Shown: piece by piece, positions 1-64,000 of the stretch
Layout of the letters: every line of letters begins with the position of its first letter
How positions within the stretch are numbered: the first letter of the stretch is position 1
IMG/VR virus record: IMGVR_UViG_3300025138_000031
DNA: 64,000 nucleotides
Reading direction: 5' to 3' (one strand)
Origin: an uncultured virus (IMG/VR IMGVR_UViG_3300025138_000031)
Lineage: Duplodnaviria; Heunggongvirae; Uroviricota; Caudoviricetes
The notes under the pieces: model-generated
What the model was told of the DNA's origin: nothing
Seen by the model: the letters and a program-made list of their open reading frames with translations, nothing else
The model's database searches: none
Position numbers and translations under genes: made by a program

Positions 1-182
1 AGTGGTTCTACCAAAATGGTACTATGGACTACATGGGAAGAACTCAAGGTTTTGCTTCTACTGGACAATTCAATGGATATAGAGTTTATATGACTCAGAC
101 CATGCCAGCTATTTGGGTTAAGGATCCTACTAAAGTTCTTAAAATTGTAATGAGAAATCCTGTAACAGGAGGATCATTCTAG
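1..182 (+). CDS. Major capsid protein, C-terminal fragment (5' truncated by window)
   Basis: Frame from nt 3 reads WFYQNGTMDYMGRTQGFASTGQFNGYRVYMTQTMPAIWVKDPTKVLKIVMRNPVTGGSF-TAG. The 'GY.V...IWVKDPT' end resembles crAss-like MCP C-termini. It is followed by a strong terminator and crAss-like post-capsid genes. Not in the ORF track. Confidence 0.75.
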   Translation, partial: WFYQNGTMDYMGRTQGFASTGQFNGYRVYMTQTMPAIWVKDPTKVLKIVMRNPVTGGSF

Positions 183-193
183 TAATTATAATT

Positions 194-224
194 AAGGGGG
201 AGGTTAATCCCTCCCCTTTTTTTT
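194..224 (+). terminator. Rho-independent terminator after MCP
   Basis: GGGGAGG-TTAATC-CCTCCCC stem-loop followed by T8. Confidence 0.85.
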
Positions 225-247
225 ATTAACATTTAAAGAAATAAATT

Positions 248-496
248 ATGGGAAAACCTAAGCAAGTAAATAAATTAAGTCAGAAGTTTGAAAGTGCTGC
301 GTATGAAGGAGTTACAAGAGCTCAGACAGGTAATGCTAGATTGCTACATGTAAATGAAGTAATTAGTTGGATCCGTGATCTTGCAGATTCTACCACATAT
401 GCTAATGAAACTGCTGCAAAAGCTGCTGGATTAAAAAAGGGAGACCTATATATTCAGACAGGTAGTGGTGCAATTAACATAGTACTAACAACATAG
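248..496 (+). CDS. Small virion/head-decoration-like protein (82 aa)
   Basis: C-terminal YANETAAKAAGLKKGDLY..TG motif of the kind seen on phage fibre/decoration proteins; lies directly after the MCP gene. Confidence 0.5.
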   Translation: MGKPKQVNKLSQKFESAAYEGVTRAQTGNARLLHVNEVISWIRDLADSTTYANETAAKAAGLKKGDLYIQTGSGAINIVLTT

Positions 497-507
497 TCAA
501 AAACTTT

Positions 508-531
508 AAGCAAGATTAATCTCTTGCTTTT
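508..531 (+). terminator. Stem-loop / weak terminator
   Basis: AAGCAAGA-TTAATC-TCTTGCTT followed by TT. Confidence 0.55.
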
Positions 532-617
532 AGAAATATTAGTAATAATAGAATGTACACTACGGTGTATTATTTGACTTGAGTACCAATTATTAATTTT
601 TAAAAAAACCAAACGGA

Positions 618-1637: not shown

Positions 1638-1647
1638 ATATTAAATA

Positions 1648-2355: not shown

Positions 2356-2381
2356 TATATTGGTTATCTAGTAGAAAATTA

Positions 2382-16567: not shown

Positions 16568-17803
16568 ATGAACAATTTAAAACAAAGGATAATTGAATCA
16601 TTTAGGTGGAAAAAACATCCACGTATATGTGCAGAAAAGCTAAATATTACTGAAAAGCAATATGTAAAATTAAAGAGGGAAATACTACAAGAAAGAAAGA
16701 AAGAAAGAAAAGAAGAAAAAGATAAAAAGAAATTCTTTACAAATGCTGAGGGAAAATGTCAGATGGTTGAGTCAATTGATCTAGAAAAGGGGGAAGGTAA
16801 AATATCAGGTACTTTTGATCATGAACCAAAATCATCAGAAGAAATTATTAAATTATTAAAGATAGACACAAACAAGTGGAAGCTATCACAGTATTGGAAT
16901 AAACAAATGGGAGACCATTGGAGAGTTTCTGCATTAGTATCACAAATTAAAAACCCAGAAAATAAATTATTTGAAGAGTTGTTAGCCAACTGGAAACCTA
17001 AAACATATAAGATCCCTAAAGTAAATTTAAAAGGAATTAAAAGTAAAGATCCATTATGTGGAGTAATGTCTTTACAAGATATACATTTTGGTAAAGAAGG
17101 TAATGATACTATAGATAAAGACTTTGAAGACACAATTAAAAATCTTATACAAAGAGCAGTACCTGTTCATTATATAGAAACTATGTATTTTGTTGTAGGA
17201 GGTGATCTAATCAACATGGATACGTTTGAGGGTAGTACCACTAGTGGGACTGTTTTAGATAACTGTATGACCGCTACAGAGGCTTACGTACAAGCATTTG
17301 ATGCTATGCATTGGGCTATAAATTATATTAAGGGTTATTGTAAAAATTTAATTATAGTATATGTTCCCGGTAATCATGATAGATTATCTTCTTATCATCT
17401 AGTTCATGCATTATCAAAGTCTATTGAGTCAGAAGAAATAACTTGGGACATAAAATATGAAGAAAGAAAAGTACATGTATGGTATAATAACTTTAATGCT
17501 TTTGAACATGGTGATAAACGTAGCAAAAACAACCCATTAATATTTGCTACAGAATATCCTAGAGAATGGGGGAGTACAACAAATAGAACTTTATTTAAAG
17601 GTCATATACATACAGATAGAAAGGTTGAATATATGACATCTAATGAGACAGCAGGTTTTGTAGAAAAAACTTTACCTAGCTTAGGAAAAGCAGATTATTA
17701 TCATTACAGCAATAAATATGTAGGTAATAGAAGATCTGGTAAATTAGAAATCCAACACCCTACAATGGGTAATATATGTGAGTTAACTTATCAAGCTCTG
17801 TAA
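16568..17803 (+). CDS. Calcineurin-like metallophosphoesterase with N-terminal extension
   Basis: All five motifs present: DIHFG, GDLIN, GNHD, EHGD, GHIH. Confidence 0.9.
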   Translation: MNNLKQRIIESFRWKKHPRICAEKLNITEKQYVKLKREILQERKKERKEEKDKKKFFTNAEGKCQMVESIDLEKGEGKISGTFDHEPKSSEEIIKLLKIDTNKWKLSQYWNKQMGDHWRVSALVSQIKNPENKLFEELLANWKPKTYKIPKVNLKGIKSKDPLCGVMSLQDIHFGKEGNDTIDKDFEDTIKNLIQRAVPVHYIETMYFVVGGDLINMDTFEGSTTSGTVLDNCMTATEAYVQAFDAMHWAINYIKGYCKNLIIVYVPGNHDRLSSYHLVHALSKSIESEEITWDIKYEERKVHVWYNNFNAFEHGDKRSKNNPLIFATEYPREWGSTTNRTLFKGHIHTDRKVEYMTSNETAGFVEKTLPSLGKADYYHYSNKYVGNRRSGKLEIQHPTMGNICELTYQAL

Positions 17804-19109: not shown

Positions 19110-19120
19110 AATAAAAAATC

Positions 19121-26286: not shown

Positions 26287-26287
26287 A

Positions 26288-31777: not shown

Positions 31778-31810
31778 ACCATAAAGATTAGTGAATCTCC
31801 TTAATTATTT

Positions 31811-31818
31811 GTATATTA
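31811..31818 (+). promoter_or_regulatory. GTATATTA putative promoter motif
   Basis: TTTGTATATTAATAATATA ending just before the ATG at 31829. Confidence 0.5.
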
Positions 31819-31828
31819 ATAATATAAT

Positions 31829-34507: not shown

Positions 34508-34509
34508 CT

Positions 34510-37356: not shown

Positions 37357-37380
37357 ACTTAAAGAGTTTATTTATTACAT

Positions 37381-37411
37381 TTTGTAAACTTATTAAATTA
37401 TATTAATTTTG
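37381..37411 (+). promoter_or_regulatory. Bacteroidota sigma70-type promoter (predicted leaderless transcript)
   Basis: TTTG (37381-37384), 19-nt spacer, TAATTTTG (37404-37411); ATG follows at 37416. Confidence 0.65.
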
Positions 37412-37415
37412 AACT

Positions 37416-40673: not shown

Positions 40674-40679
40674 TAATAG

Positions 40680-49600: not shown

Positions 49601-52600
49601 ACTTGCTCTTTCTGAAGAATTAAGAACAAGACTAGAGAGAGTTGCTATTGAACAAGGTAAAGAAGGTAATACAATTACATTACAAAATGCTTTATCTGCA
49701 GCAGACACAAGTATTGGTGCATTAAAAGCAGACATTAGTAAAAGTTTAGAAATTCAGTTTGATGAATTTCAAGACACATTAGATGAACTAAATGTAAGGG
49801 ATCAGTTCTCTAAATATATTAAAGATGGATTAGCTGTTGGACAAGGGGTAGCTAGAAAAGAAACATTAAAATCAGCTAGACTTCTTAATTTAAATTATTT
49901 AGAAGAACACAACCTAAAACAAATATTTATTAATGATTATATTAATACATTATCTATAAATCAAGTTTTATTAGGAGATGAAGCTATGTCTTTAAAGGAT
50001 CCTATTGATCAGGTTAAAAGGGCTAAGATGCAAAATGCAGCATACTATAGTGCATATAGTTCTTTCTCTGCACCTTTACTGGGAGTAGATCACAATGTAG
50101 AAGATATTTCTTTAATTACTTTTGAAGAACCAAAAGGTCAATCAGCTATTACAGGAGAAGATATAGATAGAGCTGATGCCCAAATGTATATAACTACTAA
50201 AGCATTTAGATACATGTGGTTTGGTTTTGGTAAACTTACAAAAGCACAAGCAGAACTAATTGATGCTATTGAGAGTGGTCAGACTTTGCCATTAGGAACT
50301 TATGATCTAGCAAATCAATTGTTTGGTAATGAACAATCTCCAATAGGACTAGTAGATCAACAGGCTATGTTGAATTCTAAGAAACTAGTTTATGGAGATG
50401 GTAAGACATTTTTAAAGATGTCTGCATTTGTGTTGACACCACAATATACTTCAACATTAGATGATCAAGGCAAGTGGGTTGCTAAACCAAATAGAATTGA
50501 GCTACATAATTTAAGAGTTAAACTAGAAGCTATAGAGAACAAAGAAGGTGCACAAACACTTGGTATTGCTGCTCCTGAATCTGCTTCTAAGATGATGAAG
50601 CAAAACATCAATAACATAGAACAACTAGGTAATACAAGAGAATTTACTGAGGAAGTAACAAACCTAGATGCTAGAATGATGGGGTTACAAGTTCTTAATC
50701 CTAGTAATAAACTAGATATAATTGATCCTACACAGATTAAAGAGATATTAACATCTGAACAAGATGATAGTGTTTATGTTGCTGCTTTGGATATGACAAT
50801 TGGAGAAATTAGATCAGCATACAACCAGGCTGTGTCACAAAGAGTTGAGCTTAAATTTAAAGATAGAAGAAACTTAATATTTACTTTAGGGACATCTTAC
50901 GATGAATTAGCTGTATCTAAAGAACAAGGAAAACTTACACCTAATCTTCAAGCATTTTTAAATTATGCAGTTAATAGTTTAAAAGCTTCTCAATCATCAG
51001 AGACCTTATTAGATTTCTTTTCATCAACAGATGGTGTACAGAATTATGATTTAAACAACCCTGTAACAGTAAAGAAATTTGAACAACTATTCTTAAGCTA
51101 CTTTAGTAAGGGTACATTATCAGAACGTGCTCCAGGAGTTTCATTAACTTTGGTTTCTGATTTTGGAAATAAAGTATACAGAAGAGTATATGAAGTAGAT
51201 GCAAACGGAGTACCAGTAAGATCTGAAGTAATTAGAGAAAATGTTTTTGAAAAAAATCCAGAAGCTTTAGTTGAATTAGATTCATTAGTAGAAGGTGATC
51301 ACAATGGTGTGGTAGTACTAGATAGATTAAGAACTGGTTTAATGGGATATACTGATCCTAAAGACAAGTCTACAGCTACAGGAGAAAGATATTCAGAAAT
51401 GATAATGCCAGCTCACTATAAAGATATTATGACTTTAGTTGAAGAGGGTACAATGGAAATGCCTGAAGCTATAAGTAAAATGTTTGCTGTAAGAATACCT
51501 ACACAAGATAATCATTCTGCTATGGCTGTAAGAATGGTTGACTTTATGCCAGCTTATTATGGATCTACTGCAATGTTTTCTCAAGAACTAATAGAAATAT
51601 CAGGTGCAGATTTTGATATAGATAAAGTTTTTGCATTAATTAAAGAGTTTTACGTAAAAGATAATAAGTTTGTAGAGTATAGCCAAGAAGGAAGTTATGA
51701 TGAATACTTCAGATATGTAAGTGAAAGAGTTCTTAAGTCTGGAAATATATATGCAGAAGCAGCTAATTTATGGGTTGATGAACAATCAGAATCCAAAACT
51801 CCTATAACTCTAGCAGAAGAAAACAATGTTACAGATGCAGGTTTAAGTGAAAGGGGTTTACAAGCACTAAAAGTATTAGGTCTTCCTATTACTAAAGCAC
51901 AATACAAACTGTATGTTGCAAAATTTGGTGTTCCTTATGCAGCTCCACTTAACAATAAACTTGTAGATCTTAAGTATGCATTGGTATCTAATACCGGTGT
52001 GACGGAAAGTGAATCAGGAGTTCCTATTTCTTATCAATCAGCTAACCAACAGATAATCACAGATGTGTTAACTGAGTTAGCAAATGAGTCAGATTATTTT
52101 AAGAAAAAAGTAGAAGAAAATGTATCAGATATTAATAATTTAAATGGTAAGATACTTGCTTTTAAAGCTAATAAGGGTGCATCAATTGGTGCATTTGTAT
52201 TGCCTAATTTATATTTAAGTTTATTGACTGAATATAAATCTGAATTGAAATCACCAATTACAGTTAACGGTAAGCCTTATTCTAAATATGGTGTTACAGT
52301 AATGGAGAATGGTGATAGAAAGCAAGATGTTAATTCTTCTTTAGTTACCATGGCAACAGATAATGCTAAAGACCGTAATGTTGGTAAGCTTGGTTTAAAT
52401 AGAAATGCATCAGCTGTATTAATGAATATGGTTGCATTAGGTATTCCACTTAAGACTGCCGTGTTATTAATAAATGTACCAAAAGTTCAAGAGCTTTATA
52501 CAGCAGCTATAAACAAAACAGATATGTTTGATGCTGGTATTATTGCTTTAGTAAAAGCTGAATTAAGTGAGTCAGAACAAAAAGGACAAACTGGTTTGAT

Positions 52601-54416
52601 TACAGATGAAATACTATTAGATGCAATCAATAATGACAACACAGAAAGTGAAAAACAAATTTTACAACTATTCTTACAAGTTTTAAACCTTACTGCATTT
52701 ACTGGAAACATGGGTGCCATTACTGGACTTACTAAAGGTTTAGGTAAAAGTATAGTAGATATAAATACTAAAGCTGAAAGTATAGAAAAGTTAATGGATC
52801 CTAAAGCTCTTATTGACTTGTCTAAAATTTATAAGGGTAAGACATTCCAAAACACATACTTAAAAATATTTTATCAAATCAAAGAAAAACTTTTGCCTGC
52901 AACATTCTTAACTGCAAGTGCTGATTTTAGCATATTAGCTGATGAAGTATTTAAAGAGATGAATACAAATGATCTATCATTTACAGAAGAAACAAAAGAA
53001 AAAGTAAGATTAGATCTATTATCTTATTTGACAATTAAGGCATATGATAATCATATGATGAATAATAATAGTAGAAAAGTTGCTACATTAAATAACCAAA
53101 TACTATATCCATCACGTGATAGTGAATCTATTGTAGATGTAACACAAAGATTATTTGATTGGGCAGAAATTAATGATCCAAATAATTTCTTTATTATGAA
53201 CTTTCTGGACATTACTAAGGCTGATAACATTGACAATACAACTGGTTTAAATTTAGCTATGGCTAATACATTTAGACAAATTAGTTCTGCTCAAAAATTA
53301 GACCTTGTAAATGACTTTAATAAACTATACACCAATGTACAAACTAAAGATGATGCACAAGCAATAGTAAACTACATAATGGTTAAAGATGGATTACAGT
53401 TAGGATATGGTTCTTTACTATCTGCAATTGCACCACAAGTATTAAATGATTACTTAGATCAAGTTGACTCAGTAAGAAAAACATTAGAAGGTGAAGTAAC
53501 GTTTGGAACTACATTTAATTCTACGCAAGAAGAATTAATAGAAGAGTTTAAAGATGGGTATTTAACTTCTAACATAACAGGACCATTGTTACCTAACTTA
53601 GTACGAAGTGAGATTAAAAAGTTACCTAAACCGGTTACATTAAAAGGTGATAAGCTTACTATCAAATTTAAAGATGAGAGTAGTATTAAGAATTATATAA
53701 GAATTTCAAATGTTTCAGAGCTTGGAGGAGCAACATATAAAACATATAAAGCAAATCCAGAACAAGAAGGCTTAACAATTGAATATTCTGAGGTTCCAAC
53801 TTATGGGTCAAATCAACAAACAGCTATAGGTTTTATGTTTAATACTCCAGAATTTAGTAGACCAACCTATGCTGAAAATAGAGAGTATGTAAAGAATAAA
53901 AATAATCAAACTTCAGAGGAAAGTAAAATGGATAAGATGGAATTTGGTTTGTCAGAAGCTGCCGCTATACAGCAAGATGTATTAAATGACACAACTAATA
54001 ATATAGTTGCTACAGACAAAAGTGTAGAAGCTAATGGTATAAATATGGCTGATACAGATGCTTTGATGAAAAACATTTTAGAAAAAAGTGCTGCAATAGA
54101 AAATATAGAGTCTGAAATTAATACTCTAGAAGATACAGAAAATGCATTACCAACAATAGATGTAAATGAACAAGGGCAATATGCAATGTTTGCAGAAGAT
54201 ATACTTGGAGAAGCATCACAGTTTCCTTTATTGTCTGAAGGTTATGCTAACATTATGAGTAATCCATCTAACAAAAGTATTATGATGGAAAATAAATTAT
54301 TTCCTTTTAGTAATATGATTAGTGAATATAATGATAACTTTGTTAAAGAAAAGGAAACAGAACAAGAAAACCAAGAAGCTTTTTTAGATCAACTAAAATG
54401 TCTAGGTATAAAATAA
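40680..54416 (+). CDS. Giant virion RNA polymerase polyprotein (N-terminal ejection region, zincin protease, two-barrel RNAP)
   Basis: GADFDIDK at 51609-51626 (the DFDID catalytic motif of crAss-like virion RNAPs such as phi14:2 gp66), RIPTQ, TDNAK; HEAFH plus EEYLAD zincin at about 47094; hydrophobic Gly/Ala segments and EGVQEVSQ near the N-terminus. Confidence 0.92.
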   Translation: MENQNDTNLKDQSLASTIQETQRPTASVVPPGQDFIPVTEMFENAYTRIADINAIDPSIISGVNRYRNELDEYGIPALASLGVARPSLATGKFDPVAQQNPPANDFSKIQQILNEDVSEGPADDIAAPRFVNMRSSQFDRYFNNRKFDDLGFTPYSNTEEYYNQNSDVYDDMSRMWGQYTSLAGSGFSSVYRSIGDFFDGDNYAYAPDISTAMEFEDAMRVGNSSRDGGMAWTNNLLLNSAYTMGIIGSIAVEELALFAAAGVQGFLNPASDAVLLARTGANIKRLAVEGARVFNVFRGLEAGRDIYKTLKSAEAAKDFWSAAKTGGRVLGNAFAPNTVYALKNFKTAQNATQNGINIAKAASTFGGFYRDVRAINLALAESKLEGGMVYNQLVRDGIRIHEAKTGRPVTPDQMAKIESAASKGSFYTTMANAPIIYASNWFVLGNAMGGFNRTLSRVFNDSYRRGFKSIVQTGATRNAKGVLNKNVFENVGANLGGTWKKVKAGGWKGLVGSGGAAMLRYAAANIAEGVQEVSQEAVSAATTGYYNEVMKDPLAGGMELRNTMIANGIGSQLSSEGFSVFMSGFLMGGVVQLPQKMFFQGVPSIYKYGANQAASGLGMDGGVFGTKGQNEAWAEYKEQRDEFLADILEQHNTVWNNQIDDPTSLFDETKFNFFMQKQMADGMKAANGQDMFAFKDEQDASKFQQMYTIFQHGTSQIYRDQLTDMLKLTNEELYEAYSGSAGVKKSDIKNGKIRERLTNMVEAIDKQEQNYLDDVAKFPQPFDPSKFKKGTPEFTQEVLSANAWNHARFLYMFTKDGFTQALERSNKIYSLLENEPIFAKMEAKDLTVLLSAESIDAEIKMLKAEKQVFQDSDQAPQTKQIAEKAERIAKLEAIKAILTDPKYTTKSDGKRKGTFDRRNIKKLSPAFAAYVKYLAGTQDSFVSEENINKALIDIVDHIALKERAKVYDKAIEYLGNPERFGEIFNRQLEYNKQYFSKVKENFEKQLKKYVSIQEANQLMSEFLALNPSVFFDPEETKMFLETNDIKYLKTAYTETSQVSGIDSDGAFVIYDKILHEQIKQKLRTYAGIQEDVFEQPETKPKTESDLSNEAAADVEDTLGNMGIDVVLDQPNNTPMLNALLKKEYRKYQATASIMGDPVISFDRWRDSQEGVNLQNGFNALKKIWAAGKMSNNPSTQEIEYISPLSSEQVISEKGFEQWALSRDTQESPQVRRVLDQLGLKLSDIFVNVDAVGDKGSTIPGDANRKVIEKGSTAALIKIDTVDVNSGDRVSQYKITDLNGNNLSKELLNFLDQKNQVHRFGTFTTLGKALAAYKIIEATAPDTSIFPFDGVEGLNQGMLVYKDNEPFIILSNPGEAANGYLKIIPAALNTPNKKELKSNTITLQPGQFKGVYTKQDLDTTKFNANVARIDVNEPITPYKAVNKGEDSGSFGEAEARYNLIVSMLSADELANLEFVISVPENSGEVSERPFSITGKDGVQYLSPNPLVKLVKSKYQIGIRIKDAAINSRLMDALLKVGLKPNTNEGNFFAFLNNQYVVMEDLQGKPVDPRSMSESQMLNTIYPGGVQNMSNKELLNLVHNNFALNALIVSELDELGLTTESGEVSFINGFGKFGLKVDGGRVAYPEKGQQISRPVNDLLYNDSDGNGGILIYDFKYDPDLGKRTVQTVTNLEGDAQSKLRADVKQGLGDRYNDMITGSDRYYVIIKLPNGTYAPVNLKSRKKTLVEVTSLYTRIISRAQDTLKDNKKGDVLFNEKFNEETNNELFISNKPGYIIDLEVSPFGQPQLILKKKLGKDNFEEKARIEISKDVVRDAKLGSTKEMQTLLDDFNKDEAVRAEGVKLSPANFRESFPDGAPVETILEKSRTNVLPNVVEQQKLRVTGDDAAIQASKDVAFISPLKPDEVKPLENPTNEELGDDGINGISDELFDEQLEREFEEYSNQTLQPIVNKILRGLELNAREENVYKYLESKIELLVLNQGGRGSKAEATEVLESPLQRAKQELDVYKEELLAGVLFKDHAKTLKNSKEYQRLVKNYKQLAKIANKLLKPSLTPLEVEEINTFIDWARVNLPDYISVETLENLRDNFQSNNERVGAFMLNMSGIGNGVQGTIFTKALSPFKYHEAFHGVFRMLLSQEEIVKFRNIARKEVRAKLRAEGKSFKKELGIFRNSASTYTNMSEKELENEYYEEYLADEFEKFKMDPKSSNVDAEVKSFFTRLMEWLKSLFNNVAQDELQTLFKNIDTGKYQQAQVAKNEFTAAMNAGPIVANALLPYSNEQVEDVSGNIRTGTLYLNSDISNPLIGSMAAMFLNRVSEIKGAYNPASVLEVLMGDFQNLYHPLNPANESLTEEQLAELSIIQDSFNIYPEEITKAVVSQLNTIGTQVENEQFTLDEFEDSSGVRTTSQYDKDASLIGGFNSLSSFIRGFIATTNLVADDQGLVMDLYGNTELESSDENIGTKPLIIPVDAQYAYNALLKAVKNTEDTKQILEQMYAFGVDNPHAGAVVTRILNRAGISPETLLSKDPLPVNFVMKDPGFLQSIIKGFQNYRVNYIFNERDEYGNIRIYSAAQRDDINAQLDKWNQAFISKKKRFNNEKVQNQIEELLNGLNDLLTSQKKITNKALSEKASKYSLDLFNLVGIKLSPLYIRFSALKSKPTSVLNVSQASLVRNNIDQLSINEIGLNQTSKTVNEYVTTIEELRLGIQRNANIFSTGNDGIASRLYELSQNNAAFDETVGASVFKNPNGDLVFAHQLPTYHLKQVKALNNISTLDSLKATDPYLTNNYLLNSAAFRNMSNKQKLQISRIAGSKIGQELNSEADLNEFISGIKSTQTYGEFTPQEFAVTMINNYTAFFNTKSNKVDRVLDAEGNEVGIAPILVRVMEASNTGDMLGLPVIKAVETVNGEVKITDTAIDIVVNEIATEFSRINREAQQLNDAGRQLIKGYNVNENGRAFKINNNKLALSEELRTRLERVAIEQGKEGNTITLQNALSAADTSIGALKADISKSLEIQFDEFQDTLDELNVRDQFSKYIKDGLAVGQGVARKETLKSARLLNLNYLEEHNLKQIFINDYINTLSINQVLLGDEAMSLKDPIDQVKRAKMQNAAYYSAYSSFSAPLLGVDHNVEDISLITFEEPKGQSAITGEDIDRADAQMYITTKAFRYMWFGFGKLTKAQAELIDAIESGQTLPLGTYDLANQLFGNEQSPIGLVDQQAMLNSKKLVYGDGKTFLKMSAFVLTPQYTSTLDDQGKWVAKPNRIELHNLRVKLEAIENKEGAQTLGIAAPESASKMMKQNINNIEQLGNTREFTEEVTNLDARMMGLQVLNPSNKLDIIDPTQIKEILTSEQDDSVYVAALDMTIGEIRSAYNQAVSQRVELKFKDRRNLIFTLGTSYDELAVSKEQGKLTPNLQAFLNYAVNSLKASQSSETLLDFFSSTDGVQNYDLNNPVTVKKFEQLFLSYFSKGTLSERAPGVSLTLVSDFGNKVYRRVYEVDANGVPVRSEVIRENVFEKNPEALVELDSLVEGDHNGVVVLDRLRTGLMGYTDPKDKSTATGERYSEMIMPAHYKDIMTLVEEGTMEMPEAISKMFAVRIPTQDNHSAMAVRMVDFMPAYYGSTAMFSQELIEISGADFDIDKVFALIKEFYVKDNKFVEYSQEGSYDEYFRYVSERVLKSGNIYAEAANLWVDEQSESKTPITLAEENNVTDAGLSERGLQALKVLGLPITKAQYKLYVAKFGVPYAAPLNNKLVDLKYALVSNTGVTESESGVPISYQSANQQIITDVLTELANESDYFKKKVEENVSDINNLNGKILAFKANKGASIGAFVLPNLYLSLLTEYKSELKSPITVNGKPYSKYGVTVMENGDRKQDVNSSLVTMATDNAKDRNVGKLGLNRNASAVLMNMVALGIPLKTAVLLINVPKVQELYTAAINKTDMFDAGIIALVKAELSESEQKGQTGLITDEILLDAINNDNTESEKQILQLFLQVLNLTAFTGNMGAITGLTKGLGKSIVDINTKAESIEKLMDPKALIDLSKIYKGKTFQNTYLKIFYQIKEKLLPATFLTASADFSILADEVFKEMNTNDLSFTEETKEKVRLDLLSYLTIKAYDNHMMNNNSRKVATLNNQILYPSRDSESIVDVTQRLFDWAEINDPNNFFIMNFLDITKADNIDNTTGLNLAMANTFRQISSAQKLDLVNDFNKLYTNVQTKDDAQAIVNYIMVKDGLQLGYGSLLSAIAPQVLNDYLDQVDSVRKTLEGEVTFGTTFNSTQEELIEEFKDGYLTSNITGPLLPNLVRSEIKKLPKPVTLKGDKLTIKFKDESSIKNYIRISNVSELGGATYKTYKANPEQEGLTIEYSEVPTYGSNQQTAIGFMFNTPEFSRPTYAENREYVKNKNNQTSEESKMDKMEFGLSEAAAIQQDVLNDTTNNIVATDKSVEANGINMADTDALMKNILEKSAAIENIESEINTLEDTENALPTIDVNEQGQYAMFAEDILGEASQFPLLSEGYANIMSNPSNKSIMMENKLFPFSNMISEYNDNFVKEKETEQENQEAFLDQLKCLGIK

Positions 54417-54424
54417 TATAAGTT

Positions 54425-57400
54425 ATGGCAAGATGTCCAAATAAAAATACTGCAGAGTATAAAGCATTACAAGATGTATTTCAAACAGAAATAAGAACTA
54501 ATAGTGTTATAAATACTTGGCAAGACATTAATAACTCAGATGCATTTCCTACACCTTTTCAGGCTAATGAGATGGTGTCTGATCAGAAAGTTGCTTTTGC
54601 TTTAAAACAAAAATCATTTGGATTAAGTTTATTAGATAACTTACGTAGAGAACATATAGGTCATACATTCCAGGGACAATTTTTAATTAATAATTCTAAC
54701 CCAGTTACAAGAGAATATGACTCAATGTTTTTAGATGCTAATGTTAAAAAACTATATAGATATTTAAGAATAAACAATATACCTGCTGACACAGTTACAT
54801 TACAAAGAACACCAAAGACATATAGACTAATTGTAAATGAGGATTTATTTACTAATAAAGATGTACTTGAAAAGTCTAGGTCATGGGATACTAATAGGTC
54901 TAGAGAGGTTGTTATGCACCTAAAAAGAATGTTTCCACAAGTTAATGTAGAAATGTTGAGTGTTACTGAAGCTGCAGATATGTTTTCTATGTTTCCAGAA
55001 TGGAAGAAGAGTAATGTTAAATTTAAAGATGTAAAATCTTTTTATGTAGACGGTACAGCATACTTAATAAAAGGTAGAGTAACTGATGAGACAGCAATAG
55101 AAGAAATGCTACACCCTTTAGTAGATGCAATCAAAGTAGACAACCCTGAATTATTTAATGGTTTGTTAGCAGAGGCCAGCAAGACTTTTCCAGAAATGGT
55201 TCAGCAGATAAAAGCTGAGTATAATGAGAATACCAGAAACTTTAGTGATACTGAAAGAAATCTAGAAATAGTAACACAAGCCTTATCAAGACACTTTAAG
55301 AAAGAATATGAAACTAATCCTAGCCAAGGATTCCTAGACAAAGTAAATGAGTTTATGGATTGGTTTATGGAACTTATAAATAACCTTAGTGAGTATTTAA
55401 CAGGTACACCTTTATCTGTAAAAGATATAAACCCAAGTGGTAACTTAAGTGATATTGCTAAACTTTTAAATACAGAAAGAATACAATTTAAACTGGAGAG
55501 TAGAGCTGATGGAAAGATAAGGTTTAGTTTATCTCCAGAAAAGAAAAGACAGGTTGATCAAGCCTTGTCTGAAGCTAATGGGGTACAAGCAGAAATAATA
55601 AAAAGTTTATTTCATGTAGCCAACTCATCAGATGTTGAAGTTAATTCATTGTCTGGTAGCAGATTTAAAACTGAAGAGGAAATGCAAAGAGGAGACTCAG
55701 GAGAAACCATTGTTGTTTTAAATGAGAAGAATCACACATACTATGATATAACAGATAAGCTTCAGCAGAAACCATATACCTCAGTTACTACAGCAATCAA
55801 AGGCACTCTTAAAAACTTAGAAGATGTTCAGCTTAATTTAGATATTGGCAATGATGTTGATGCTTTATTAGATGCTTTGGTAACACACCGTAGTGTAGAG
55901 GATGTATTTGATCAAATGAAAGTTGTAGATCTAGAGACTGCTAAAACTGTTTATAATACATTACAAACTACACTAACTAATATAATGCCTGAAGGATCTA
56001 TTGCTTTATCTCAAGTTGTAGTATTTGACAAAGCAACAAAAATGGCTGGTACAGCTGATTTAGTTATTGTAGATAAAAATGGTTTTATTAAAATTGTAGA
56101 TTTAAAGACTACAAAAAATTCTTTAAAAACCTATACTACAGAAGATACAAAGGTAGGGAGAAAACAAACTGTATATTATGATAAAGAATGGGCACTAAAT
56201 GAGGATAGTTTATTGAAACAAAAAGGAATTGATAAATTATCTACTAGAGGTCAACATAACCTACAAGTAAACATTTATAGAAGGATGTTTCAGAATATGG
56301 GATATGATGTATACATGGGAGACTATGCTGCATCTACTTTTCATTTAGTTGCTGATATAAGTGGGAAAGGCAAGAACCAAAAGTTCAATGGGAATATTAA
56401 GTCTGATCAATGGGTAGATCATCCTATATCTCAGAATATTAATTATGTTAATATGCTTATGCCGCTCAATCCTGATACAACTAAAAAAGAAGAGTTAGAT
56501 GAGCTTACTAAAGATATGGAAAATAAACTGGTTGATCCAGATGTTGTTCCTGCAGATTTAGTAGAAGAAGATGAAAAAACAGCAGAAACGGTTACACCAG
56601 TTCCAGAAGATCCAGTATATGATACTATTTCTGGCATACTTAAAGAATACCAATTATCATTAATAAATAAAATAGATTTACTTGAGGCAAAGAAATTAGC
56701 CAAAGCTTCTATATTTATTGATAGAACAAAAGATGAAGCAATAGAACAATTGGCTTCTACAATTGCTTTTATTAATATAGCAATGAGTGAGGGGCCTATA
56801 GCTAGATCTTCTGCTTATTCAGAATTATTACAAGACTCACTAAGACAAGTTAGAAAGTTTAGTGCCTATGTTCAAGATCCTAAGAACTTTGCTAAATCTG
56901 AATACATTACTTATGTATTAAATTTTGATAAGTTTATAAAAACATTCCAAGGTTTACAAAGCATTACTGATCTAGCACCTTTAAATGCAACGCAAAGATC
57001 TTTAATATTGTCTCTTAAGACAGATCTTAATAAATTAACTGGTGCTGATGGAACACAACAAGGTTTAATAGATGGTGCTATTAATGATTATGTTAAGGAA
57101 ATTATTAGAAACAAATCTAATAGAGCTTATGGTGAAGAAGGAAGCTTCTTTACAGAAGCAAATCTAGAATTGTTGTTAAAAGAAGCCAGAGACATCTCTG
57201 GTACAGATCTTTACACTAGGGATTTGGCTACACAAGGTGATGTTATTTTAGCTTTGATGGATAAAATATATAAGTCTAAAAAACAAGAGCTATTAGATAA
57301 AGTTGCAGAAAGAGAAGGTGTAATTAAAGCAGCAGGTAACCAAGTAATTAAACTTACACCCAATGCAAAACGTAATACAGCATATAATTTTATGTTAGTA

Positions 57401-60262
57401 TATGATGAGAATGGTGAGTTTACAGGTAACTATGTAAAAAAGATTGGTCAACAGTACTATAAAAAGCAGGAAGAACTAAGAGCACCTCTATATGATAATG
57501 ATAATAACCCATATCAATATGAAGAAATTTTAGCATCTGATATAGAAGAGCTTAAAAAAACCAAAGAGGGACGTGCAAAAATAAAATATAATCAAGATCT
57601 TGCAGATGCTAAAGCTGCATTCAGTGCATTCTTTAGAGCTGAAAGAACTACAGATGAACAGTATGATGATGGTGAATACCATACATATACAAAAGAATTT
57701 AAAGATGCAAGAGATAGAGTAGAATACTATGTGCCTGGTAAAGATGGTAGTCCTTTTGGAAATTGGTATAGAAAACCACGTGTTTCTGATGTACAATATG
57801 CAAAGTATGAAGCTAGGTATTTTAAAGTAAATGAGTACACTAAAGCAATAAGAATAGATGGGGTACCTACTGGAGCTGTAGTAGCTGGTCAAACATACCG
57901 TTCACCAAAAGTAAAGTATAGAGTAGCATTAGAAAGAAGTAATCCAGTAGATGGCTTACCTCAAGATATGACTAGTGAACAATATAGAAGCATTATGAAT
58001 CCTAGTGATGCATTAGGAATAGCACAAAAAGAATTCTATGAATTGTTTGTACAGTATTTTGAAAATGAACTTCTAGAAAAGTTACCACAGAATGTTAAAA
58101 ATAACATGCTTGGTAGAGTACCGTTAGTTCAAGGTGCTGCTATTAATACTATGAAAAAGAAGTCATCCTTCTGGAATCAATTGTATGCAAAAACTGTAAG
58201 AAGCAGAACATGGAATATGTTTAATAAAACTTCAACTCAAAAAGGAGTTATGGTAGATCCTGTTACTGGATATATTGTAGATCAGATGCCTATTTTTTAT
58301 ACAGGTAGGCCAAAGATTGATGGTGAGATGGAACAAATAGAAAAGGAAAAACTTGCTATACAAGACCAATATAAAACAGGTAAGAAGCAAGATGGTACTA
58401 CATATACAGAAGATGACTATAATATTGATTTAGCTGGGATTAATGGTAAGTTAGCTAGAATAAGATCAACACCTAGTGTAGGAGAAATTAGTACTGACTT
58501 AGCAACCAGTCTTATTAAGTTTAGTGCAATGGCAGAAAACTTTGAGACAATGGCTACTATTGATGATACTCTTAATGCAATGATGAAAGTTATAGAAAAC
58601 AGACATTATCAACCATCTGAAGGCTCAGGTATAACTTTTATAGATAAAGTAAAAGGTGTAGTTTCAGGAACACCAAAAAGCAAATATGCTAAAAATGAAA
58701 ATACAAAGAAGAGAGCTCAGAAATGGATGAGTCAAGTGTATTATGATAATGAAAATATTACAAAAGGAGCAGGTGATAAAATAGCTGAGGGAATTATTCA
58801 ACTGTCTTCTTTGTCTTATGTAGCCTTTAACCCTTTTGGTAACTTTAATAACTACTTAATTGGTAGAGTCAATAACAATATTGAATTACTAGCAGGTAGG
58901 TTTGTAAGTAGAGATGCACAACTAAGAGCATCAAGAGAGTTTAATAAAAGAGCCTTACCTGATATGGTTTCAAGAACAGGTGCAGCAATGACAGATGCAG
59001 TTGACGTACTTACATTTGGTAAAATACCAGGTTTAAAATCAAGTGAGTATGATCCTAAAAGAGCTAATAGTAAATATGAAGCATTTGTAGATATGTTTAG
59101 GATGATGGATAAGATGTCTGAATTGCGTGAACAGGGAGCAGATACTGCAGAGGGCAAAACTTGGTTTGAAAGAGCAGCTGAATGGGGTTATGTAATGCAA
59201 GATGCAGCAGAATATAATGTACAAACTAAAATGGGTATGGCTGTTTTGATGGATACTACTATGCTTAATCCAGACACTGGGGAAACATTATCTTTATATG
59301 ATGCCTTTATGTATGATGCCAAGTCACACACAAATAAAATTAAAGAAGGTTTTACCAAGATTGTTAAGTTAGATAAAAATAACAAAATAATTAAAGGGAG
59401 TGAGCAAGACTATACTAATGAATTTAGATATGATTTAAGAAATAAAATCAGAGAAATAAATAAACAAATTCATGGTAACTATGCTAGAGAAGATAGGATG
59501 GTTATGCAACAACATACATTAGGTAAACTTGCAGTTCAATTTAAGAAGTGGGTGGCACCTGCTATTAGAGCTAGATACCAAAGAGAATACTTTGATGAGA
59601 ATCTAGGTTGGATGGAAGGTAGATATAGATCTGCTCTTAGCTTTTTAAGATATACAGGTCAACAACTTAGAAAAGGTAATACAGAATTTAATACCTATGG
59701 TAAAGGTTTTATGGAAGCACAAAAAGGATATGATGGAAAAGGTGGAAATGCAGATCAACGTGCACAGAATAAACTATTTGGGTTCTATAGAACAATGGGT
59801 GAGATAGCTATTATGACAAGTGCACTATTAATCAACTCTATATTAAGTGAATTACTAGCGGGAGATGGAGATGATACTGACTTAGAAAGAAGAATGAAGA
59901 ATTTATCTAAGTATCAAGTAAACAGAATTTACAAAGAGATGGTGTTATTTATGCCTTGGATTCCTGATGGAGGTAAGCAAGTATTCCAACAGTTTGGTAA
60001 TCCAGTAGCTGCCACTAGAACTTTTGGTGAGTTATCTGAACTATTAGGAATGACATTAGTAACTGGCTATAAAGGTCTGAGACTCAAAGCAGGAGGTAAA
60101 GAAGAAGATTATTTCTATGGAGATAGTTCAATAGTATATCAGAAAGGTAAAAGAAGAGGTGAACTTAAGTTATACAAAAACTTTAAGGATGTATTTCCTA
60201 TTGTGTATAGTATTCAGAAATGGGAGTCTTATTTAACTAATGATGATTTCTATATAAAATAA
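54425..60262 (+). CDS. Large polyvalent cargo protein with degenerate zincin and PD-(D/E)XK nuclease domain
   Basis: EEMLH (55100-55114) in place of HExxH; AGTADL..IVDLKT..QVNIY (about 56045-56280), RecB/Cas4-like; long helical C-terminal region with a hydrophobic segment. Confidence 0.75.
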   Translation: MARCPNKNTAEYKALQDVFQTEIRTNSVINTWQDINNSDAFPTPFQANEMVSDQKVAFALKQKSFGLSLLDNLRREHIGHTFQGQFLINNSNPVTREYDSMFLDANVKKLYRYLRINNIPADTVTLQRTPKTYRLIVNEDLFTNKDVLEKSRSWDTNRSREVVMHLKRMFPQVNVEMLSVTEAADMFSMFPEWKKSNVKFKDVKSFYVDGTAYLIKGRVTDETAIEEMLHPLVDAIKVDNPELFNGLLAEASKTFPEMVQQIKAEYNENTRNFSDTERNLEIVTQALSRHFKKEYETNPSQGFLDKVNEFMDWFMELINNLSEYLTGTPLSVKDINPSGNLSDIAKLLNTERIQFKLESRADGKIRFSLSPEKKRQVDQALSEANGVQAEIIKSLFHVANSSDVEVNSLSGSRFKTEEEMQRGDSGETIVVLNEKNHTYYDITDKLQQKPYTSVTTAIKGTLKNLEDVQLNLDIGNDVDALLDALVTHRSVEDVFDQMKVVDLETAKTVYNTLQTTLTNIMPEGSIALSQVVVFDKATKMAGTADLVIVDKNGFIKIVDLKTTKNSLKTYTTEDTKVGRKQTVYYDKEWALNEDSLLKQKGIDKLSTRGQHNLQVNIYRRMFQNMGYDVYMGDYAASTFHLVADISGKGKNQKFNGNIKSDQWVDHPISQNINYVNMLMPLNPDTTKKEELDELTKDMENKLVDPDVVPADLVEEDEKTAETVTPVPEDPVYDTISGILKEYQLSLINKIDLLEAKKLAKASIFIDRTKDEAIEQLASTIAFINIAMSEGPIARSSAYSELLQDSLRQVRKFSAYVQDPKNFAKSEYITYVLNFDKFIKTFQGLQSITDLAPLNATQRSLILSLKTDLNKLTGADGTQQGLIDGAINDYVKEIIRNKSNRAYGEEGSFFTEANLELLLKEARDISGTDLYTRDLATQGDVILALMDKIYKSKKQELLDKVAEREGVIKAAGNQVIKLTPNAKRNTAYNFMLVYDENGEFTGNYVKKIGQQYYKKQEELRAPLYDNDNNPYQYEEILASDIEELKKTKEGRAKIKYNQDLADAKAAFSAFFRAERTTDEQYDDGEYHTYTKEFKDARDRVEYYVPGKDGSPFGNWYRKPRVSDVQYAKYEARYFKVNEYTKAIRIDGVPTGAVVAGQTYRSPKVKYRVALERSNPVDGLPQDMTSEQYRSIMNPSDALGIAQKEFYELFVQYFENELLEKLPQNVKNNMLGRVPLVQGAAINTMKKKSSFWNQLYAKTVRSRTWNMFNKTSTQKGVMVDPVTGYIVDQMPIFYTGRPKIDGEMEQIEKEKLAIQDQYKTGKKQDGTTYTEDDYNIDLAGINGKLARIRSTPSVGEISTDLATSLIKFSAMAENFETMATIDDTLNAMMKVIENRHYQPSEGSGITFIDKVKGVVSGTPKSKYAKNENTKKRAQKWMSQVYYDNENITKGAGDKIAEGIIQLSSLSYVAFNPFGNFNNYLIGRVNNNIELLAGRFVSRDAQLRASREFNKRALPDMVSRTGAAMTDAVDVLTFGKIPGLKSSEYDPKRANSKYEAFVDMFRMMDKMSELREQGADTAEGKTWFERAAEWGYVMQDAAEYNVQTKMGMAVLMDTTMLNPDTGETLSLYDAFMYDAKSHTNKIKEGFTKIVKLDKNNKIIKGSEQDYTNEFRYDLRNKIREINKQIHGNYAREDRMVMQQHTLGKLAVQFKKWVAPAIRARYQREYFDENLGWMEGRYRSALSFLRYTGQQLRKGNTEFNTYGKGFMEAQKGYDGKGGNADQRAQNKLFGFYRTMGEIAIMTSALLINSILSELLAGDGDDTDLERRMKNLSKYQVNRIYKEMVLFMPWIPDGGKQVFQQFGNPVAATRTFGELSELLGMTLVTGYKGLRLKAGGKEEDYFYGDSSIVYQKGKRRGELKLYKNFKDVFPIVYSIQKWESYLTNDDFYIK

Positions 60263-61638: not shown

Positions 61639-61651
61639 AAAAAATAAAACA

Positions 61652-61939
61652 ATGGCAGAAGTACCTCAGATTGGAGAACAAACAAAAGTAACTTTAGATC
61701 TTAAAACAATTGGAATGATAGTGGGATTTGTAATTTCATTATCAACCATGTGGTTTACATTAAAGGCAGATATAGCTCAGGCTATGGAAAACCCCAAACC
61801 ACCAATAGAAAGGGTAGAATATGATTTAAAAGATGAACTTGTAAGACAGACCATAATGGAAACCCAGGAAGACGTGGAGATGTTGCTTCAGAAGTTTGAA
61901 AAAATGGAAGAAAGAATCTATGAGTTAACCAAAAAATAA
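61652..61939 (+). CDS. Single-pass membrane protein with coiled coil
   Basis: TM segment IGMIVGFVISLSTMWFTL followed by an acidic helix. Confidence 0.6.
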   Translation: MAEVPQIGEQTKVTLDLKTIGMIVGFVISLSTMWFTLKADIAQAMENPKPPIERVEYDLKDELVRQTIMETQEDVEMLLQKFEKMEERIYELTKK

Positions 61940-61943
61940 TATT

Positions 61944-62357
61944 ATGAAAAAGGTTTTGTTGTTTATTCTAGCATTGTTTATTACCTCAACTATACAAGGT
62001 CAACAGTGGGTTAGTGATGATAGCTTTACTGATGAAATAAACGGACATTCAGGTGATCAAGATGAAGATATAGTTATTATAGAGTTTTGGGCAGAATTTA
62101 ATAAAGACAATGCTTTTGTAGAGTGGAAGAAGGTAGATGACCTTGACGGTGTAAAATATTTAAGAGCTAACATAGCCCTTTGCCCATCATTAAAAAAAGA
62201 ATTTAGAATTAGAATGGTGCCCACTATATTAATTTTTTCAGGAGGAGACGCATTTATAAAGTTCAAAGCTAAAGCCGGTCTAGACCTCCTATGCCCTGTA
62301 GACTATCCTAGGATGGTCAGAGCAATAGAGGTTGTTAGACGAGAAGCTTCTTACTAG
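61944..62357 (+). CDS. Exported thioredoxin-fold protein lacking CxxC
   Basis: Signal peptide; VIIEFWAEFN at the WCxxC position; IRMVPTILIF cis-Pro motif. Confidence 0.75.
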   Translation: MKKVLLFILALFITSTIQGQQWVSDDSFTDEINGHSGDQDEDIVIIEFWAEFNKDNAFVEWKKVDDLDGVKYLRANIALCPSLKKEFRIRMVPTILIFSGGDAFIKFKAKAGLDLLCPVDYPRMVRAIEVVRREASY

Positions 62358-63979
62358 CCTTCACAGCTAGAGCATTCCAAAATATTTCTTGCAAAATCTT
62401 GAGCACTACTTTTACTAAATTGATAGTATAAAGTTTTTACTCCTTCCTCCCAAGCATATAAATACAATTGATTAATCTGTTTAGCAGATACTGATGGGTC
62501 AATCATTAGGTTTAGTGACTGTGACTGATCAATATACTTTTGTCTTTGTGCTGCCTGCAAAACAAGTTCTTTAGGTGTAATCTCAACAAAAGATTTAAAT
62601 ACAGCTTTGGTAGGAAAGTTTAAGTGTTGGACACTACCATCTTTTTTTAAGATAGACTTCCAGGTCTTATCTGTATTAAGATCATACTTATCAAGCTCTG
62701 CCTCTAGAAAAGGGTTTTTATACACTGTTTTAGATTTAGCAAGATCCTTAATAAAATAATTAGACTTGATAGGCTCTATACCCATAGACACAGCACCATG
62801 TATAAAAGAACTAGACTTTGTAGGAGCTATAGCCATAAGAGTAGTATTAGCATAACCTTCTCTCAAAGATCTGTATCCCCATGCACCATGCAACTTTCTT
62901 GATGCAATTTCACTTCTATCTTTTAGAGTCCTAAATATTTCTGAGTTAAGTTGTTTAGCTTCAAGTGACTCAAACTCTATTAACTTAGATTGAAATAAAG
63001 AATGGTATCCTAACACACCTAAGCCAATTGCTCTATGTTTCTCAGCAAAATTAAAGGCTCTCTTCATCCCAGGCATTGTCTCTGCTTTAATAATAAACTC
63101 ATCCATTACTGCATTTAAAAAGTATACATATGTTTGTATAGCATCTGTTTCTTTTATTTCATCCCAATGTAAAAGGTTAATAGATCCTAAACAACAAACA
63201 AAAGAGTTATAACTATCTGTTGGTAATTGTATTTCAGAACATAGGTTAGATGCTGTAATATCTAAACCTAGATCTTTATATGGAGAATTGTTATTAGAAT
63301 TATCTTTAAACATTATATAAGGATAACCAAACTCAGATCTACGTTGTATGATTTTAGCCCACACTTTACGTTTTTTTCTGTCTCCTTCTTTCATTTCTTC
63401 CATCCACTTATCTGTGACAGTAATACCATACTGTAGGTTCTGTATAGGATTGCCTTCAGTACCTATGTCTAGAAACTCTTCTATGTCAGCATGCTCTACA
63501 GGTAAGTACACTGCACATGCACCACGTCTTGCCTCAGACTGTTTACAAACATCTACAACTGTATCATACATTCTAGCATAATGTATAGGGCCATCAGCAT
63601 GACCACCTGTAGATATTTCACTTCCTCTAGGTCTAATGTTTCCAAGGTATGCACTTGTTCCTCCACCATACTTAGACATCATTCCAATTTCACGGCCTGC
63701 ATTAAGTATACTATCTAAGTTATCATCTATGTTAGAACCATAACAACTAATAGGTAGTCCTTTCTGCTTGCCAAAGTTAATCCATACAGGAGTAGACAGA
63801 GAGAAAAAACCTCTTGCCATATAATCCTCAAACTTTTCAGCAAAGCCTTTGATGTTTAAATATTTTTCTGCCTTGATGGCAATGTCTTTAATTCTTTGTT
63901 CAGGTGTTTCTGTTATATATCCTCTTGATAAGAAGGTTCTGCTATCATCATTTAGCCAGTAATACTTTTTATATTCCAT
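62354..63979 (-). CDS. nrdA: Class I ribonucleotide reductase alpha subunit, short, no ATP-cone
   Basis: PISCY, SNLCSEI (NxCxE), CCLGSINL, APTKSSS, KTLYY, C-terminal CSSC. Confidence 0.95.
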   Translation of the reverse strand: MEYKKYYWLNDDSRTFLSRGYITETPEQRIKDIAIKAEKYLNIKGFAEKFEDYMARGFFSLSTPVWINFGKQKGLPISCYGSNIDDNLDSILNAGREIGMMSKYGGGTSAYLGNIRPRGSEISTGGHADGPIHYARMYDTVVDVCKQSEARRGACAVYLPVEHADIEEFLDIGTEGNPIQNLQYGITVTDKWMEEMKEGDRKKRKVWAKIIQRRSEFGYPYIMFKDNSNNNSPYKDLGLDITASNLCSEIQLPTDSYNSFVCCLGSINLLHWDEIKETDAIQTYVYFLNAVMDEFIIKAETMPGMKRAFNFAEKHRAIGLGVLGYHSLFQSKLIEFESLEAKQLNSEIFRTLKDRSEIASRKLHGAWGYRSLREGYANTTLMAIAPTKSSSFIHGAVSMGIEPIKSNYFIKDLAKSKTVYKNPFLEAELDKYDLNTDKTWKSILKKDGSVQHLNFPTKAVFKSFVEITPKELVLQAAQRQKYIDQSQSLNLMIDPSVSAKQINQLYLYAWEEGVKTLYYQFSKSSAQDFARNILECSSCEG

Positions 63980-64000
63980 ATTGGTTTTTTTAAAAGAGAT

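Follow-up and report, generated by a model that had tools for sequence, protein, structure and literature searches.

Near-complete loss of the trinucleotide TCG from both DNA strands of a marine crAss-like phage, and its graded depletion across the clade

The DNA analysed here is a stretch of 64,000 nucleotides (nt) from an uncultured virus of the Caudoviricetes (IMG/VR record IMGVR_UViG_3300025138_000031); the whole stretch is referred to below as the window. It is part of the genome of a marine crAss-like phage of ~115 kb, and it is almost devoid of the trinucleotide TCG and its complement CGA. The open reading frames (ORFs) encode putative tail-fibre or receptor-binding proteins, crAss-type tail ring proteins and, downstream of the ring genes, the block of giant ORFs that is looked for in crAss-like phages; Pfam places a thioredoxin and a ribonucleotide reductase at the right end (Table 1). 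The ring assignments rest on matches to PF25702 (CrAss_Ring_2) and PF24228 (CrAss_Ring_1), the latter at 26.6 bits and thus slightly below the 27-bit cut-off. The ring protein has 109 relatives in IMG/VR at 70–95% identity, on contigs of up to 118 kb, and the terminase of the clade has 391; complete relatives measure ~113–118 kb and encode a crAss-type capsid, portal and terminase, DNA polymerase, primase, DnaB, a UDG-family protein, MazG, GroEL/GroES and ribonucleotide reductase. In relative G004 the capsid gene, which corresponds to a region outside the window, matches PF23898 (Crass_capsid, E 6e-22), and its TerL finds the best cultured or reference matches among Crassvirales and Flavobacterium FpV4-like phages, with no more than 21–27% identity. 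Megablast of window positions 1–20000 against cultured phages gave no match. At least half of the sampled words of window 20001–30000 are present in 17 sequencing runs, mostly marine or seawater metagenomes, and the 20 runs that hold all or part of this segment span 15 studies.

The base composition of the window is A 24083, T 19069, G 12282 and C 8566, from which 1644 CG dinucleotides are expected; 212 were counted (observed/expected 0.129), with CA and TG at 1.26 and 1.18 of expectation. The first-pass annotation, made from the letters alone, had put the number of CG at about 190, so that the figure is corrected and the strong scarcity stands. Its three CGA positions, all in ACGA context, and its zero count for TCG on the + strand were matched exactly by the full counts. 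A first-order Markov model predicts 74.4 CGA on the + strand, and for TCG/CGA on both strands 129.9 sites are expected against 3 observed (ratio 0.023); the second-lowest trinucleotide is GCC/GGC, with a ratio of 0.53. In 100 dinucleotide-preserving shuffles of the window the mean over both strands was 126.47 sites (standard deviation 9.50). The Markov-normalised counts are far from the level expected from CG frequency, and the deficit is real and exact.

The CG that survive lie mainly in the contexts that had been noticed by eye: over both strands ACG/CGT occurs 233 times and CCG/CGG 127 times, against 61 for GCG/CGC. The table of NCGN counts is triangular. ACGT, ACGG, ACGC and ACGA occur 62, 41, 21 and 3 times; CCGT, CCGG, CCGC and CCGA 24, 21, 7 and 0 times; GCGT, GCGG, GCGC and GCGA 20, 13, 0 and 0 times; and every TCGN is zero. 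All TCGN and NCGA words are therefore scarce, and not TCGA alone. GATC is present at a normal level (224 versus 199.6 expected), as the first-pass annotation had said, and CATG is low (118 versus 211.9). The words CCCGGG, CGTACG, GACGTC, GCGC and CGCG are absent from the window.

Table 1. Features of the window, with positions counted from its first nucleotide (aa, amino acids).
Feature	Position	Strand	Remarks
Whole window, purged of 5'-TCG-3'	1..64000		0 TCG on +, 3 on -; from counts, Markov and shuffle expectations
Tail-fibre/receptor-binding ORFs, 774 aa (BppL_N) and 1602 aa	5501..12725	+	0 TCG/CGA versus 16.4 expected
411-aa metallophosphoesterase-like protein, virion module	16568..17803	+	phrog_704 'DNA repair exonuclease', E 5e-45
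crAss-type tail ring proteins 2 and 1	18435..20098	+	PF25702, E 9e-18; PF24228, E 4.7e-6
Seven giant virion or cargo ORFs	20113..60262	+	2057, 1829, 892, 948, 1085, 4578 and 1945 aa; 0 TCG, 2 CGA
Residual CGA, ACGA context	50900..50902	+	codon junction TAC/GAT in the 4578-aa ORF
Residual CGA, ACGA context	53604..53606	+	in-frame Arg codon in the 4578-aa ORF
Residual CGA, ACGA context	62340..62342	+	in-frame Arg codon near the end of the thioredoxin-like ORF
Ribonucleotide reductase large subunit	62354..64000	-	no TCG and no CGA

The 24 ORFs cover 96% of the window and 23 of them are on the + strand. In frame, TCG serves none of 1528 serine codons and CGA two of 681 arginine codons. The other phases are as empty: none of 177 NTC codons is followed by G, and at none of the 841 T/C codon junctions does G come next, so that none of the 63 CGN codons is preceded by a codon ending in T. 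Only one of 2556 GAN codons is preceded by a codon ending in C, and none of 586 G/A junctions by an NCG codon. Codons were shuffled synonymously within genes, 100 times, with the proteins and the codon usage preserved. The shuffles predict 54.2 and 26.5 cross-codon TCG in the two phases (minima 37 and 18), of which none is seen, and 16.4 and 132.2 cross-codon CGA (minima 9 and 108), of which one is seen; in total ~229 cross-codon sites are expected and one is found. The claims that the loss is independent of reading frame and that codon bias alone does not suffice are both borne out. All cross-codon TCG and CGA can be avoided silently, and the purge thus needs no change of amino acid.

The comparison with related phages shows that the whole clade shares the purge, to a graded degree. 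All of the 80 ring-protein loci examined have a CG observed/expected of 0.15–0.38 and a deficit of TCG/CGA. In the 69 non-redundant loci used for ratios the observed/expected of TCG+CGA ranges from 0.02 to 0.62 around a median of 0.19, and it rises with that of CG (Spearman 0.68, p 1.6e-10). A scan of terminase alignments kept a further 80 loci, all at 83% identity or more and hence none outside the clade. In nine complete relatives (G001–G005, G017, G020, G021 and G048; loci L081–L098 and L336–L371) the TCG/CGA ratio is 0.057–0.322, with 23 to 154 sites per genome. When these genomes and the window are pooled, CGA/TCG stands at 0.163 and the next-lowest trinucleotide at 0.63. The purge is a process at the level of DNA, independent of frame and particular to this phage lineage; it is not codon bias.

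Two weaker avoiders carry regions in which the sites are nearly as common as expected. In the fibre region of G045 (30063–39846; L237 10063 to L238) 46 sites were counted versus 59.2 expected (0.78), with 0.21 in the rest of the genome, and in that of G015 (23636–28144; L254 3636–8144) 43 versus 47.9 (0.90), with 0.37 in the rest. The G015 fibre ORF ends in a C-terminal Peptidase_S74 fibre chaperone domain. These site-rich fibre ORFs have no nucleotide homologue in any other relative and are exchanged even among phages that are otherwise nearly identical; their near-normal TCG/CGA content marks recent module swaps. Since the swapped fibre genes are near normal and the fibre ORFs of the window are empty of sites (Table 1), the purge is an ongoing process that incoming DNA must undergo. 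One stretch of the 1602-aa fibre ORF (window 8316–8839) resembles a gene in a 1.7-Mb Flavobacteriaceae genome (G283 C1, ~158.4–161.6 kb; L382/L383), with 89 residues 58% identical and 116 nt 76% identical; the DNA of that genome has a normal TCG/CGA ratio of 0.70–1.10. The shared stretch may be host-derived or a common surface domain.

Strand symmetry, which the first-pass annotation had also claimed, holds roughly in that both strands are depleted, but the nine relatives show a strong orientation bias and all three sites of the window are TCG on the - strand. The complete genomes were oriented with the structural genes on the + strand. In regions of plus genes the + strand carries TCG and CGA in a ratio of 81:305 (expected TCG share 0.41), and in regions of minus genes 22:147 (expected share ~0.59; each genome p < 0.005). 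TCG is thus 4–7 times rarer on one DNA strand, irrespective of the direction of transcription; read on the sense strand, it is 5.3 times commoner in minus than in plus genes, and CGA 0.21 times as common. The control words TC, GA, TCA, TGA, TCT, AGA, TCC, GGA, CC, GG, AC and GT differ only 0.80–1.16-fold between gene orientations, so that the bias tracks the absolute DNA strand and is specific for TCG. The GC skew at four-fold degenerate sites, read in sense in the gene sets of G001, G004 and G005, is ~0 in plus genes and lies between −0.18 and −0.26 in minus genes; its absolute-strand component fits a replication that treats one strand alike throughout the genome. The usual reading of such skews is that the G-rich strand, here the + strand, is the one more often single-stranded. 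By that reading the strand most cleared of TCG, the G-rich + strand, would be the more single-stranded one.

A symmetric per-strand model was fitted to the pooled counts and gave factors f(A) 0.67, f(C) 0.82, f(G) 0.47 and f(T) 0.048. The chief misfit of this model is again the orientation, with 93 ACGA against 42.5 predicted and 16 TCGT against 30.1.

The host is probably a member of the Flavobacteriaceae, as judged from the phage chaperonin. GroEL of the relatives is 70–74% identical to that of Flavobacteriaceae, other matches being at 49–69% (mostly 50–66%), and it matches 396 of 401 Flavobacteriaceae genomes at ~71–74%; such near-equal distances suggest an old capture from this family. In G004 the phage's own GroEL (544 aa) lies at L090 14416–16050 (-) and GroES at L092 6324–6608 (+). 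Candidate host DNA does not share the deficit: in 50 stretches of Flavobacteriaceae DNA the TCG/CGA ratio is 0.59–1.41 (median 1.01) and the CG observed/expected 0.32–1.22 (median 0.82). The small, streamlined genomes of the family have CG at 0.32–0.54, yet no deficit specific to TCG. This low level of CG resembles that of the phage in A/C-CG-G/T contexts, which is 0.3–0.5 of the junction-independent expectation. As the Flavobacteriaceae stretches show no TCG/CGA deficit, host composition does not explain the purge, which is confined to the phage.

Classical restriction palindromes are avoided as well. In the nine genomes and the window pooled, CCCGGG is absent (31.5 expected), as is CGTACG (16.9 expected), and GACGTC occurs twice (36.6 expected); GGTACC, GGATCC and CATG stand at 0.26, 0.35 and 0.61 of expectation. 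Because such palindromes are avoided, site avoidance acts on this DNA, which behaves as unmodified DNA under restriction pressure. The search for methylases elsewhere in the genome, proposed in the first-pass annotation, found none: the C5 methylase family PF00145 was absent from the records of relatives in two sets (0 of 5 and 0 of 50), PF01555 did not exceed its cut-off in any of 45 (two matches of 11.7 and 12.8 bits lay below it), and no methylase came up when the non-structural genes of G004 were scanned with Pfam and PHROG.

Nuclease-like genes are present. Two PD-(D/E)XK proteins and a small HNH protein were found in G004. In the window Pfam finds no PD-(D/E)XK domain, such as the first-pass annotation had mentioned, among the 24 ORFs of at least 100 aa. 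The sole nuclease-like gene seen there encodes the 411-aa metallophosphoesterase-like protein, which has 1200 homologues, is named an MPP superfamily phosphohydrolase by one source and is not of the PD-(D/E)XK type; it gave no PDB or Pfam match. The replication module of G004 also encodes DUF1599 ('nucleotide modification associated domain 1'; L090 14034–14444 (-)) and a MazG pyrophosphatase (17219–17530 (-)), with GroEL and a DUF932 gene between them, on the flank of the DNA polymerase side. Neither a thymidylate synthase nor an enzyme that modifies dCMP turned up in the Pfam and PHROG scans of this genome.

Pairs of strong avoiders at ~90% identity were compared site by site. Identities among the relatives are either 90% or below, at which silent sites approach saturation, or close to complete. 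Of 200 TCG/CGA occurrences 134 differ in the partner and 66 are shared; the differing fraction is 37% for ACG/CGT, 54% for CCG/CGG, 55% for GCG/CGC and 15–21% for the tabulated trinucleotides without CG. Differences of the type TCA/TCG number 57 per ~12762 TCA sites and those of the type ACA/ACG 294 per ~13251, which is 5-fold lower for TCG; TTG/TCG differences number 21 per ~15138 and ATG/ACG differences 418 per ~13857, which is 21-fold lower. The loss per residual TCG/CGA site is only 0.8–3 times that of ACG. The alternative states at TCG are TCA and TTG in a ratio of 57:21, without an excess of TTG; in other contexts the ratio is near 1:1. This is the pattern of suppressed gains and not of fast losses: new sites are filtered out, and a tolerated minority, for the most part + strand ACGA, is retained. 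Among strain variants, taken from the contigs of four public runs and hence without allele frequencies, 40 of ~796 places were inspected, of which none creates TCG/CGA and three create other CG (two of them adjacent). Strains that have diverged by 2–3% from window 20001–36000 co-occur in several marine runs (X14, X17 and X19); their + strand transitions are A>G 75–96 and G>A 61–74 versus C>T 38–48 and T>C 41–48.

Mutation without any selection on the motif could produce a similar deficit if the cytosines of TCG were deaminated, either once methylated or through a deaminase that attacks single-stranded intermediates of replication, and sites were thereby lost to TTG or TCA at a higher rate than they form. 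The general depletion of CG with an excess of CA and TG would fit, as would the dominance of transitions among the alternative states in all CG contexts and the two- to threefold faster turnover of trinucleotides with CG; the more purged strand also has G in excess of C at four-fold sites, which by the usual reading of skew is the strand more often single-stranded. Methylation-driven mutation, one of three explanations offered in the first-pass annotation, is weakened by the lack of any C5 or N4/N6 methylase hit in the 55 records of relatives, by the lack of a TTG excess and by the third of the sites that are shared at ~90% identity. Losses at 0.8–3 times the rate of ACG, together with gains 5–21 times lower, point the same way. 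TC, TCA, TCT and TCC show no strand effect such as a general T-C deaminase would leave; additional C-to-T change on the + strand would, by our reasoning, turn CCG into + strand TCG, opposite to the bias; and the DNA of the host family is not depleted. We therefore consider context-specific hypermutation unlikely. A second proposal, that a phage nuclease or nickase shreds host DNA at TCG/CGA and spares a phage genome that lacks the sites, gains from the abundance of targets in host-family DNA (about one per 50 bp), from the absence of a detected phage methylase, from the existence of chlorovirus enzymes with a specificity of two or three bases, from the many ORFs without known function and from the candidates named above (the metallophosphoesterase-like protein, and the two PD-(D/E)XK proteins and the small HNH protein of G004). 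It is weakened by complete genomes of closely similar layout that carry 23 to 154 sites and by swapped fibre genes in which 43–46 are tolerated; a continuum from 0.02 to 0.62 is unlike the all-or-none risk of self-cutting, the nuclease families found are recombination and repair types with no known sequence specificity, and the orientation bias has no obvious explanation. Such self-protection appears to be rather improbable.

Three further explanations carry little weight. If TCG, on either strand, were the protospacer-adjacent motif (PAM) of a common host system of clustered regularly interspaced short palindromic repeats (CRISPR), the phage would gain by removing targets; a short word that is not a palindrome and is counted on both strands would suit this, and weak depletion of PAMs in phages has reportedly been seen. 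BLAST of window 1–20000 against the 401 Flavobacteriaceae genomes nonetheless gave no spacer-like match, those at 100% identity being only 24–26 nt long with E above 1e-4; selection per PAM is weak, as a matching spacer is also needed, which makes a near-total loss hard to reach; the orientation bias is left unexplained, and we know of no TCG PAM. This explanation is very improbable. Translational selection through tRNA supply would account for the shunning of TCG and CGA as rare codons in frame, but the antisense strand is just as empty, as are the two remaining phases, and the cross-codon sites are missing too, so that it is refuted as the sole cause and has hardly any probability left; no tRNA genes were found in the window. 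For an artefact of sequencing or assembly, such as a miscalled modified motif, no supporting point was found, and the same pattern in 80 + 80 independently assembled IMG/VR loci, the recovery of window 20001–30000 from 17 runs (20 with whole or part, from 15 studies) and the intact long ORFs make its probability negligible. Taken together, codon usage, the composition of the host, methylation by the phage and artefact all fail to account for the finding.

What the three explanations of the first-pass annotation had in common, a frame-independent process at the level of DNA that is specific to the phage, is upheld, and among them selection against a short target is favoured, because gains are suppressed, classical restriction sites are avoided and the host family is not depleted. 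Our preferred explanation, which is put forward tentatively, is that purifying selection on the DNA keeps 5'-TCG-3' off both strands and that the agent is most likely a host defence with a short target. We infer that selection and not hypermutation removes the sites, and that the agent would be host-encoded and would read single strands. The factor would read N-C-G one strand at a time, with T almost forbidden at the first position, G half tolerated and A and C tolerated, and it would seem to meet one strand more than the other. It could be a nuclease of the restriction type or an enzyme that modifies DNA, its CG-centred target being unusually short, and unmodified phages would escape it by carrying no sites; these would be lost at no cost to the proteins, through synonymous codon choice and the coordination of neighbouring codons.

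Several points weigh against short-target selection by a host defence. The relatives with 23–154 sites are evidently viable, so that a single site is not lethal, and a third of the residual sites persist at 90% identity and are hence not strongly harmful. Tolerance of + strand ACGA means that the target must depend on more than TCG, namely on the strand and on the 3' base. From divergence alone, very strong selection and very strong context-specific hypermutation cannot formally be told apart, because both need a class of tolerated sites, and an extremely fast, context-limited mutator that destroys sites at once would be invisible in such pairs. The host is placed at the level of family, by GroEL similarity, and the codon analysis uses simple longest-ORF gene calls. 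To our knowledge no enzyme or defence system has a three-base TCG specificity, and DarT, a known defence enzyme with a short motif (see below), is encoded (PF14487) in only 5 of 201 Flavobacteriaceae genomes.

Our literature search yielded no account of phages that avoid TCG/CGA. In the excerpts of a marine metaepigenomic study on which we draw (PMC8919816), Bacteroidetes are not linked to any TCG or CGA motif, and an m4C (N4-methylcytosine) GCGC motif is listed for marine genomes. According to the abstract of Rusinov et al. 2018 (PMC6286503), nearly all avoidance in non-temperate double-stranded DNA phages concerns orthodox Type II sites. The purge resembles restriction-site avoidance, as described there, in that short words are lost from an unmodified phage genome, as measured with Markov models, to an extent that varies among relatives and with the host unaffected. 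The deficit is significant (3 versus 126.5 ± 9.5; ratio 0.023), but the word is asymmetric and of three bases, is lost in every flanking context and with a bias of orientation, and is not a usually palindromic Type II site of 4–8 bp. The TCG purge is thus a form of motif avoidance outside orthodox restriction-site avoidance. The sites of the Type III enzyme EcoP15I in phage T7 are said to be co-oriented and not depleted. The clade shares with that system an asymmetric word and a genome-wide strand bias that is independent of transcription; it differs in that both orientations are depleted, 3- to 50-fold, and in that sites of the minority orientation survive. Within gene regions, 452 of 555 sites have the favoured orientation and 103 (81 + 22) the other.

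Enzymes of other virus–host conflicts offer partial parallels. Chlorovirus nickases and methylases, with specificities such as CCD and RGCY, are virus-encoded, and self-protection is by methylation; they illustrate that a specificity of two or three bases is usable in virus–host conflict, but no methylase or homologue was found in the clade. DarT of the DarTG defence is an ADP-ribosyltransferase of single-stranded DNA with a T-containing motif of 3–4 bases. A defence of this type would give per-strand reading and unequal exposure of the strands; we know of no DarT with TCG specificity, and its genes are too rare in the host family to argue from. Decay of CpG through cytosine methylation, as in vertebrates and in Mollicutes with CG methylases, likewise leaves a CG deficit with an excess of TG and CA. 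The phage differs in that no cytosine methylase was found in its lineage (PF00145 in 0 of 55 records, PF01555 in 0 of 45), in that the residual sites bear no signature of hypermutability, although sites lost at once would escape such a comparison, and in that one flanking base only is concerned.

Among crAss-like phages of Bacteroidota, CG-centred purges with lineage-specific flanking rules recur. Bacteroides phage crAss001 (L234, first 50 kb) has 44 CG (observed/expected 0.031), lost in all contexts. FpV4, a cultured phage of Flavobacterium psychrophilum with the same layout as the clade (NC_041872, 1–76000; L372+L373), has 73 CG (0.052) under the opposite rule: 71 of the 73 lie in TCG or CGA, whereas the clade keeps A/C-CG-G/T at 0.3–0.5. 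In Cellulophaga phages phi17:2 and phi14:2 (L231 and L235) CG stands at 0.28 and 0.49 with normal TCG/CGA (0.91 and 0.90) and no CCGG, and csAssE-Sib is unremarkable (0.86 and 0.84). It is possible, although we hold it to be doubtful, that marine Flavobacteriaceae, and Bacteroidota more widely, possess undescribed defences that read N-C-G per strand, perhaps on single-stranded replication intermediates, with a flanking-base specificity that varies by host group. If so, this would explain the loss of TCG here, that of all CG in crAss001 and the near-total loss of CG except in TCG/CGA in FpV4. A genome free of TCG would in that case bear the imprint of an immune sensor that reads three bases.

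In the motifs that they avoid, phages keep a record of what is visible to their hosts. The carrier clade is abundant and among the most widespread of marine phages, as the terminase relatives and the many studies with runs containing the window indicate. The near-complete loss of a three-base, non-palindromic word, independent of frame, read by strand and biased in orientation, is unlike the effect of known restriction enzymes. Bench tests are feasible, since two relatives with related purges are in culture, FpV4 with F. psychrophilum as host and crAss001 with Bacteroides intestinalis. Should the agent prove to be a host defence, it would represent a new kind of DNA recognition with a very short target and would help to explain why crAss-like phages from gut, lake and marine habitats are poor in CG.

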